DNA of 64,000 bases. It comes from Escherichia phage Mt1B1_P17. Position 1 is the first letter of the stretch, and each line of letters opens with the position of its first letter. Shown here one piece after another: positions 42,965-44,250 of the stretch. A program made the position numbers and the translations under genes. The notes beneath the pieces are model-generated. The model was not told the origin of the DNA. It saw only the letters and a program-made list of their open reading frames with translations, and did not search any database. The stretch lies in sequence record NC_052662.1; one strand, 5' to 3'.

Positions 42965-43450
42965 ATGTTTCAAGTAAATGTCAATGTGCATAATAGTTAC
43001 TCTGATTGTGAAACGTGTGGCTATAATTCATCTAATGTTATTCGTATTAGTGGCGATTTAGGAGAAGCTTCTTTTGGAGAAGAAGCAAGTTGCTTTAGTG
43101 GTATGGATGCAGAATGGAATGATATTGCACATTGGTTAGTGAGCAAACTAAAAGAAAAAGAGAAACCATTTCCTACTCTGCTTGATCGTTCTCTTGTGGA
43201 AGATGCAGGTAAAGCATATGCAGACTATGCGTATGCAGACGGGAAATATTTGGAAGATGATAAGGCTAACCATTTGCTTTATGTTTACTATGAAGCTGAA
43301 TCTGCCTACGATAATTATTACAGCATGTCTAACATCCTACGTCTGTTTGCAGAGTTTGATATTTATTTCGAAGTAGAATTTTCAGAAGATGATACTTACG
43401 AGTACAATTCTTATGATCCATTTGAGGAGGAAGAATGCCAAGACGAGTAA
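42965..43450 (+). CDS. hypothetical acidic protein
   Basis: 161 aa. Confidence 0.5.
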   Translation: MFQVNVNVHNSYSDCETCGYNSSNVIRISGDLGEASFGEEASCFSGMDAEWNDIAHWLVSKLKEKEKPFPTLLDRSLVEDAGKAYADYAYADGKYLEDDKANHLLYVYYEAESAYDNYYSMSNILRLFAEFDIYFEVEFSEDDTYEYNSYDPFEEEECQDE

Positions 43451-44250
43451 TTTTTGTAAGCGGTGCAGGTTTAAGCGCAGACAGTGGGATTCGAACATTT
43501 AGAACAGACACAGATAGTGGTCGTGCTTTATGGGAAGAATATGATTTAGAAGAGGTCTGCGATATTGGAGCTTTCCAAGCAGGTTATCGTGTTAGAACAT
43601 CTCCAGATCTTCCAGTGGTCGGTGGTGTAGACGAGAACGGTATGGATTTGTATGCCAAAACACACGAATTTTATAACAAAAGACGTGTTGAGCTTAAAGA
43701 TGTACAACCTAATGCTGCACATATTCAAATAGCAAAGTGGTTTAAGGAATATCCTAACCAAATAGTAAACTTGACAACAAACGTTGATGATCTACTAGAG
43801 CGAGCAGGTGTAGACAGAGATTCTGTTATTCACGTACACGGATATCTTCCTGAAGTAGTTTACCGTATGCATCCTGGAGATTACAAAACACTGGTAGATA
43901 TTGGTTACAATAGTATAAACATAGATGATTATAACTGGGTGAAGCCTAATGTTGTATTTTTTGGTGAGGCTGCACCTTTGTATGCAGATATGGCTCACTT
44001 GTTCGATACTTTGACCATGCAAGATTTGGTTGTAGTAGTAGGATGTTCAAACCAAGTTATCAATTTTAATTGGGAATTATTTCCTGCACTTAGTATGGGT
44101 ACAAAAATGGTTGTAGTTAACCCTGGAGTTAATTACGAAGAAACACTTCTCTATGAAGATCGTGGAGTTTTTGTTTACCGAGAAAAAGCTGCAACAGCCT
44201 TCAGCAATGAAGGTTTCATTAAAATGGTCGAAGACCACTTAAACAAATAA
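43435..44250 (+). CDS. Sir2-family (sirtuin-like) NAD-dependent protein
   Basis: 271 aa; N-terminal sirtuin NAD-binding motif FVSGAGLSADSGIRTFR. Confidence 0.6.
   Translation: MPRRVIFVSGAGLSADSGIRTFRTDTDSGRALWEEYDLEEVCDIGAFQAGYRVRTSPDLPVVGGVDENGMDLYAKTHEFYNKRRVELKDVQPNAAHIQIAKWFKEYPNQIVNLTTNVDDLLERAGVDRDSVIHVHGYLPEVVYRMHPGDYKTLVDIGYNSINIDDYNWVKPNVVFFGEAAPLYADMAHLFDTLTMQDLVVVVGCSNQVINFNWELFPALSMGTKMVVVNPGVNYEETLLYEDRGVFVYREKAATAFSNEGFIKMVEDHLNK

Follow-up and report, generated by a model that had tools for sequence, protein, structure and literature searches.

Sirtuin gene and its product

The subject of this analysis is a sirtuin gene of Escherichia phage Mt1B1_P17 (NC_052662.1). The window, i.e., the whole stretch of DNA analyzed, is 64,000 nucleotides (nt) long, and all coordinates refer to it. 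The original prediction, made from the letters and open reading frames (ORFs) alone, described a phage-encoded Sir2-like protein, and its placement is exact: the ATG is at 43435 and the stop codon ends at 44250 of the + strand, giving a protein of 271 amino acids (aa). The gene and its translation start are as follows.

43435-44250, + strand: sirtuin coding sequence, 271 aa plus stop, PHROG 2162 phage sirtuin clade (ORF read, profile and sequence matches)
43424-43430, + strand: Shine–Dalgarno sequence GAGGAGG, 4 nt 5' of the ATG, within the 3' end of the upstream ORF (direct sequence reading)

The sequence identifies the product securely as a true sirtuin, in agreement with the predicted identity. 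The Pfam SIR2 profile (PF02146) matches at 80.5 bits against a gathering cut-off of 24 (E=1.9e-22); the profile of PHROG 2162, "Sir2 (NAD-dependent deacetylase)", matches over the full length (residues 2-271, E=2.8e-104); in a phmmer search of PDB sequences, E. coli CobB is the top match (E=7.6e-19), ahead of Sir2-Af2, Sir2Tm, Sir2-Af1, and SIRT5; and the structural model described below is confident.

The flanking 4 kb share 99.5-99.8% identity with numerous phAPEC8-like Escherichia myoviruses (Phapecoctavirus, Stephanstirmvirinae), and the protein is 100% identical to a "putative NAD-dependent protein deacetylase" annotated in phage Schickermooser. Homologues are found by tblastn in 982 phage records, 289 of these Salmonella, and range over T5, Vequintavirinae, Mydovirus, Klebsiella and Salmonella T5-like phages, and Vibrio phages of the KVP40/nt-1 type; identity to the window sirtuin is 52% for T5, 46-59% for Vequintavirinae, and 36% for nt-1. 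The strong ribosome-binding site and the retention of the gene in 80 or more near-identical phage records indicate that it is under selection. The family is already known and annotated, in PHROGs, in the T5 RefSeq record (T5.102), and as the identical Sir2-like protein; the clade, its zinc loss, and the RNA-repair hypothesis considered below are likewise in print (PMC5107563, PMC9503650). Within this clade, the window protein is a full-length member along with T5.102, the "Sir2-like protein" of rV5/Mydovirus, and the Sir2 of KVP40/nt-1; the zinc-free module and the TTNVD motif are common to all of these, whereas the gene context differs.

Active site and acyl pocket

Conservation was assessed in two alignments, A1 with 25 and A2 with 74 clade members, and in 140 representatives obtained by exhaustively searching 1.84 billion cluster representatives. 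CobB residues were mapped to the phage protein through a phmmer-derived CobB alignment, with the numbering anchored on H147 and C155. The active-site features located in this way are listed below.

43462-43503, + strand: NAD-binding motif G10-R23, GAGLSADSGIRTFR (sequence, clade alignment)
43669-43686, + strand: FYNKRR with the class III pair Y80-x-x-R83, mapped to the CobB Y92/R95 anionic-acyl site (alignment)
43774-43791, + strand: TTNVDD in place of canonical TQNID, with T115 at the Gln position and N116 and D118 kept (alignment)
43837-43839, + strand: codon CAC of the catalytic His135, aligned to CobB H147 (alignment)
43957-43968, + strand: FFGE substrate-tunnel motif, F176 corresponding to CobB F190 and E178 to CobB E192 (alignment)

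The N-terminal motif, which had been read as the canonical sirtuin NAD-binding signature, is indeed of the form GAGxSxxxGIxxFR and is kept across the clade: G10, A11, G12, S14, S17, G18, F22, and R23 are invariant in A1, while in A2, S14, S17, F22, and R23 remain invariant and G10, A11, G12, and G18 are kept in at least 90% of the sequences. Further clade-invariant residues are F79, Y80, R83, and R84; P92, N93, and H96; N112, T115, N116, V117, and D118; H135 and G136; K170, P171, N172, V173, F175, F176, and E178; G203 and S205; and N229, with P230 kept in 90% or more of the A2 sequences. Alignment of the catalytic His, proposed along with the original prediction as a check, places H135 in an HG motif opposite CobB H147, and all 140 representatives have His at this position.

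The acyl pocket is also kept. The Y-x-x-R pair of class III sirtuins (Y102/R105 in SIRT5, Y92/R95 in CobB) is matched by Y80/R83, invariant in the 74 clade sequences and with both residues present in 106/140 representatives. Three other pocket positions, A76, I131, and V187 of CobB, correspond to C42, V117, and V173, which are conserved across the clade; these positions, and Y92 too, are the ones mutated in the engineered CobB variants 6rxm, 6rxq, and 6rxs (as given by the PDB titles). V173 and F176 line the lysine tunnel according to the CobB mapping. A departure is seen at the Gln of TQNID, a motif that contacts the nicotinamide ribose: Thr115, hence TTNVD, is seen in all 74 aligned clade members, and the 140 representatives have Gln in 85 cases, Thr in 42, and Ser, Ala, Met, or Cys in the other 13.

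Zinc loss and clade-specific insertions

Three further segments set the protein apart from CobB-type sirtuins.

43843-43944, + strand: zinc-free remnant of the zinc-ribbon module, Y137-K170 (alignment, model)
43504-43521, + strand: 4-residue extension of the cofactor-binding loop, T24-G29, TDTDSG (alignment, model)
43573-43653, + strand: variable insertion in the small helical domain, F47-Y73 (alignment)

The zinc-binding Cys residues, whose alignment had been suggested together with that of the catalytic His, are not there: residues 137-170 contain no Cys, the four CobB ligands C155, C174, C176, and C177 are replaced by the non-Cys residues Y143, I161, I163, and D164, respectively, and the Cys tetrad is missing from all 74 aligned clade members. 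In place of the zinc site, Y143, I161, and I163 would form a hydrophobic mini-core. Loss of the tetrad and loss of the TQNID Gln tend to go together: among the 140 representatives, 40 show both, 71 neither, 15 a non-Gln residue only, and 14 Cys loss only, an odds ratio of 13.5 that is descriptive only, as relatedness of the sequences is ignored. Zinc loss in Vibrio-phage sirtuins was described in 2016 along with a speculative role in deacetylation of Acs (Skliros et al., PMC5107563).

The cofactor-loop extension (TDTxSG) is confined to the enterobacterial-phage subclade, which is also marked by the helical-domain insertion of ~25 residues; Mydovirus-type homologues do not have the latter.

Predicted structure and relation to known sirtuins

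The AlphaFold model, built from A2, has a mean predicted local distance difference test (pLDDT) score of 90.8 and a predicted template modeling (pTM) score of 0.88, and only residues 24-30 of the cofactor loop are uncertain. Both the Rossmann domain and the small domain are present, and the former zinc module is folded into three beta-strands (pLDDT ~94-96). Structural comparison yields the highest values for Sir2-Af1 (21.2), PfSir2A (18.9), and SIRT4 (18.1); lower values for SIRT1, SIRT2, and Hst2 (~17.5), SIRT6 (14.6), and SirTM (14.4); and values from 14.2 down to 9.5 for the defence Sir2 proteins PsSIR2, KomC, HerA-Sir2, ThsA, and Avs5, the most distant of the sirtuin-fold matches. Compared with the class III sirtuins CobB, Sir2-Af1 (1ici), and SIRT5, the phage protein lacks the zinc Cys residues and has Thr for the Gln of TQNID; it is ~27% identical to E. 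coli CobB (PDB 1s5p, 6rxj) and, relative to the CobB type, adds the 4-residue cofactor-loop extension and the 25-residue variable insertion of the helical domain. A CobB orthologue was considered and ruled out, as all NCBIfam CobB cut-offs are missed. The domains fused to longer sirtuin homologues (WG repeats, GIY-YIG, RHS) are uninformative for the phage sirtuin clade, as are the source names of nearby clusters.

These comparisons bear on two other activities known for sirtuin folds. The original prediction suggested interference with NAD-based defence, and accordingly the protein could be an NAD+ glycohydrolase, or a decoy or interfering factor directed against host Sir2/TIR defence. A Sir2-fold protein carried by a phage invites this idea, and some related phages have NAD-salvage genes and NADAR within ~6 kb of the sirtuin. 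We nevertheless regard it as very improbable. PADLOC gives no significant match (best E=0.017, over 36 residues); the defence Sir2 proteins are structurally farthest; no sensor or partner domain (SLOG, HerA, pAgo, STAND, and similar) is fused or adjacent; draining of NAD+ is of no obvious gain to a lytic phage; and neither the window nor the initial 50 kb of a near-identical genome has NAD-salvage genes. Unlike the defence Sir2 NADases (ThsA, DSR1/2, Sir2-HerA, pAgo-Sir2, KomC, Avs5), the phage protein keeps the acyl-lysine pocket and the FGE motif, and while those enzymes sit in defence islands, the window sirtuin sits in a lytic phage. Given that its closest relatives are of class III and that PADLOC finds no significant match, the protein, as judged from sequence and model, is a derivative of class III deacylases and not a defence-type NADase.

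The second activity is mono-ADP-ribosylation of a host or phage protein, either SirTM-like or as the side activity of SIRT4 and SIRT6, which would redirect host functions much as T4 Alt, ModA, and ModB do, but on a sirtuin scaffold. The original prediction had left the choice between deacetylase and ADP-ribosyltransferase open. The deacylase half of it agrees with the apparently retained deacylase-type pocket, while the transferase half finds little support and is, in our view, unlikely: SirTM ranks structurally below all deacylases, both the catalytic His and the whole class III acyl pocket are kept, and neither Macro nor any other reversing enzyme is adjacent. A SirTM-like toxin–antitoxin pair is ruled out by the missing Macro neighbour.

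Predicted lysine deacylase activity

We favour, with a probability of about 45%, the reading of the protein as an NAD+-dependent protein lysine deacylase, namely, a catalytically competent, zinc-free sirtuin of a phage clade that probably descends from CobB/SIRT5-type deacylases. The homology is computed, and the catalytic steps are inferred from what is known of sirtuin enzymes. NAD+ would bind at the site formed by GAGxS...FR, N116, and D118; an oxygen nucleophile of the substrate would attack C1' of the nicotinamide ribose with release of nicotinamide; and His135 would activate the ribose 2'-OH, which resolves the adduct. The likeliest substrate would be acyl-lysine on host or phage proteins, since V173 and F176 lie in the lysine tunnel and Y80/R83 are as in CobB and SIRT5; the latter pair points to anionic acyl groups (succinyl, malonyl, glutaryl) besides acetyl. 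The phage would thus supply a CobB-like deacylase of its own, expressed with early/middle metabolic genes.

Several observations weigh against this reading. Literature searches found no enzymology, knockout, or structure for any clade member and no expression data on the enterobacterial-phage sirtuin, of which the BASEL paper makes no mention. The NCBIfam CobB models all score far below their cut-offs, the best being 106.3 versus 243 bits (NF001753) and 85.9 versus 320 (NF040867). With the change of the TQNID Gln to Thr and the loss of the Cys tetrad, substrate or cofactor handling may differ from that of CobB. The host already has CobB. Finally, in at least two other lineages the gene lies within or beside RNA-end-repair genes, a setting that a deacylase does not obviously explain.

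Association with RNA-repair genes

Most viral sirtuins were assigned by Iyer, Burroughs and Aravind (2022; PMC9503650, section 3.7.3) to one clade linked to RNA-repair genes, for which KptA-like removal of 2'-phosphate was proposed. We tested the linkage on 6 GenBank and 52 IMG/VR loci, which cover two of the three published contexts; the jumbo-phage context is taken from PMC9503650 only. Type A (~16 Vequintavirinae-type loci) comprises, in this order, a phosphoesterase, Rnl1 RNA ligase, cREC, kinase, sirtuin, DNA ligase, and MazG, so that the sirtuin is inside the cassette, between kinase and DNA ligase; phosphoribosyl pyrophosphate (PRPP) synthase is often found ~5.5 kb upstream and NADAR ~6 kb downstream of the sirtuin. 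Type B (~33 T5-type loci) has in nearly all cases an HAD "Swiss Army Knife" RNA-repair phosphatase (HAD-SAK) 0.8-1.3 kb downstream, on the same strand. In T5 itself, this phosphatase is T5.105 (168 aa; NC_005859.1 57588-58094; locus L003, 6139-6645), a match to HAD_SAK_2 (PF18143, E=4e-20). T5.105 is mis-annotated in RefSeq as "Sir2 (NAD-dependent deacetylase)"; it is followed by the DUF7415 proteins T5.106 and T5.107, an arrangement that recurs in T5-type loci. Type C is that of Phapecoctavirus, including the window, where the neighbours are a 161-aa protein, a 217-aa protein, a Dcm-type methyltransferase, and a MenT-like protein.

The window also encodes the cassette, all of it on the + strand.

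12684-18434, + strand: RNA-repair cassette, whole
12684-13040, + strand: cREC
13556-14107, + strand: calcineurin-like phosphoesterase
14109-15041, + strand: Rnl1-type RNA ligase
15042-15446, + strand: AAA_33 kinase
16189-17316, + strand: ATP DNA ligase
17709-18434, + strand: MazG-like protein

The cassette is complete and in the Vequintavirinae order, with three small ORFs in the place that the sirtuin takes in Vequintavirinae. The window sirtuin is 25-31 kb away, apparently relocated out of the cassette in the Phapecoctavirus lineage, and the window has no HAD-SAK. Ten tRNA genes (7007-8929, - strand; two for Met and one each for Ile, Pro, Gln, Gly, Thr, Asn, Ser, and Arg) lie ~4 kb from the cassette.

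Across phage records the linkage is looser. A total of 675 records have the Rnl1 ligase (175 Pseudomonas, 15 Salmonella), compared with the 982 records, 289 of them Salmonella, that have the sirtuin. Phages PaoP5 and 2L372X, which have no sirtuin, retain the cassette, and no KptA replacement is seen in their annotations. The different spread of the two genes and these sirtuin-less cassettes imply that the ligase–sirtuin association is optional. In the Pseudomonas phage PaoP5 (locus L059, 5920-9172), the NAD-salvage genes PRPP synthase and NAMPT directly follow the cassette kinase, and in Mydovirus-type loci PRPP synthase and NADAR lie ~5.5-6 kb to either side of the cassette with the sirtuin. 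NAD-salvage genes tend to be located near RNA-repair genes.

One more gene recurs near the sirtuin.

40239-41180, + strand: DUF7277/DUF7275 protein, 313 aa, PHROG 2141, predicted Pol-beta nucleotidyltransferase fold (model, profile)

Its model (pLDDT 91.8) has a weak best match in the PDB, to the tRNA-modifying nucleotidyltransferase toxin MenT1 (E=7e-4); ANT(2''), LnuA, and CCA-adding enzymes come next. The motif G5-S6...D26-x-D28 is invariant in this protein, and a Pol-beta-type fold fits it; no functional annotation was found anywhere. The homologue lies ~3.2 kb 5' of the sirtuin in the window, in Vibrio phage nt-1 (locus L006), and in loci L009-L011, and ~3.6 kb in locus L050, while the genes in between are not homologous across the window and the distant loci.

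Because of its linkage with cREC, kinase, ligase, and HAD-SAK, the sirtuin may alternatively act on RNA 2'-phosphate. In this Tpt1/KptA-like RNA repair, put forward by Iyer, Burroughs and Aravind (2022), NAD+-dependent removal of the 2'-phosphate would yield ADP-ribose 1''-2'' cyclic phosphate and complete a pathway of kinase, cyclic-phosphate opening, and ligase that mends tRNAs cut by host anticodon nucleases; the Y80/R83 pair would then hold a phosphate instead of a carboxylate. The analogy with Tpt1/KptA is proposed to be functional only, with NAD+ as the ADP-ribosyl donor, an oxygen nucleophile at C1'', and the ribose 2'-OH resolving; the ligase/kinase linkage seen in relatives of the window protein is as in fungal tRNA splicing, but Tpt1/KptA is unrelated to the phage sirtuin in fold and sequence, and Pfam finds SIR2 alone.

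The type A and type B arrangements, the presence in the window of the whole cassette and ten tRNAs, and the MenT-like fold 3.2 kb upstream of the sirtuin, as in the distant phage nt-1, all speak for it; likewise, no Macro partner is found when 20 neighbouring ORFs are scanned with Pfam and PHROG profiles, and the clade-wide Gln to Thr change, zinc loss, and loop insertion fit a changed substrate. On the other hand, the window sirtuin is distant from the cassette, the association is not obligate across phage records, and the hydrophobic residues of the acyl-lysine tunnel are invariant, which is hard to square with an internal RNA phosphate. The clade is also acidic, with a median isoelectric point (pI) of 4.97 (range 4.6-5.8), a weak argument, since the RNA ligase and kinase of the phage are acidic too and the charge test for RNA binding therefore does not discriminate. 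The chemistry needed is not known from any sirtuin, and no sirtuin is known to act on RNA. Taken together, RNA repair is possible but doubtful. A related, equally tentative idea is that this would be the first sirtuin with a physiological RNA substrate, removing 2'-phosphates or ADP-ribosylating broken or re-ligated tRNA ends as a counter-defence, here uncoupled from the ligase cassette and paired with the MenT-like nucleotidyltransferase. The lysine deacylase reading might, speculatively, be reconciled with the gene context if the sirtuin deacylates catalytic lysines of the neighbouring ligases.

Other features of the neighbourhood

The sirtuin is the second-last ORF of a long + strand block of nucleotide-metabolism, replication, recombination, and auxiliary genes. 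It is flanked by the following features.

42965-43450, + strand: acidic 161-aa ORF, pI 4.05, C-terminus EEEECQDE, PHROG 9509 (profile scan)
44258-44275, + strand: terminator-like GC hairpin with a T-rich tail, 8 nt past the sirtuin stop (terminator scan)

The end of the 161-aa ORF overlaps the start of the sirtuin by 16 nt, which suggests translational coupling, and the two are possibly co-translated. This ORF is found solely in Phapecoctavirus-type loci; its composition recalls DNA-mimic or anti-restriction proteins, while neither Pfam nor the PDB gives a match for it. Farther upstream are the 217-aa ORF, the Dcm-type methyltransferase, a 131-aa ORF, and the DUF7277/DUF7275 protein. Searches of three upstream neighbours against PDB sequences gave no matches.

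The terminator scan of the region gave 7 terminator-like sites versus 1.3 expected. Matches in the promoter scan are no commoner than in shuffled sequence, and no promoter is claimed. At 42878-42946 (+ strand), just 5' of the 161-aa ORF, there is a near-consensus sigma-70-like site (TTGACA-18-TATAGT, extended -10 TG, 11/12 matches), directly followed by an 11-bp terminator-like hairpin (42922-42946). Another hairpin, GC-rich and perfect over 10 bp, lies at 44570-44593, where the + strand block meets a convergent - strand block; with T-runs on both strands, it resembles a bidirectional terminator.

Elsewhere in the window, a 230-aa ORF (33488-34180, + strand) has a weak match to Pfam Proteasome (HslV-type peptidase, E=1e-5), and its counterpart in phage anhysbys is annotated "peptidase HslV family". 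Some RefSeq names in Phapecoctavirus-type phages look unreliable (window 35842-36432, + strand; anhysbys gp179, gp046, and gp089): proteins of 185-190 aa are named "histidyl tRNA synthetase", although the window copy has no Pfam match, and the name "phosphoribosylpyrophosphate synthetase" for a 71-aa protein is doubtful.

Implications

To what was already known of this family, the present analysis adds a residue-level map, with the acyl pocket fully kept beside zinc loss and the Gln to Thr change; the relocation of the sirtuin out of the RNA-repair cassette in Phapecoctavirus; its recurrent nearness to a MenT-like nucleotidyltransferase; and the optional nature of the ligase–sirtuin association. 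This predicted NAD+-consuming enzyme is conserved in ~1,000 sequenced virulent phages, among them the model phage T5 and many candidates for phage therapy. If it is a deacylase, phages would reprogramme the host or viral acyl-proteome; if instead it acts on RNA ends, the reach of sirtuin chemistry would include nucleic acids, and phage counter-defence by tRNA repair would gain a step hitherto missing.

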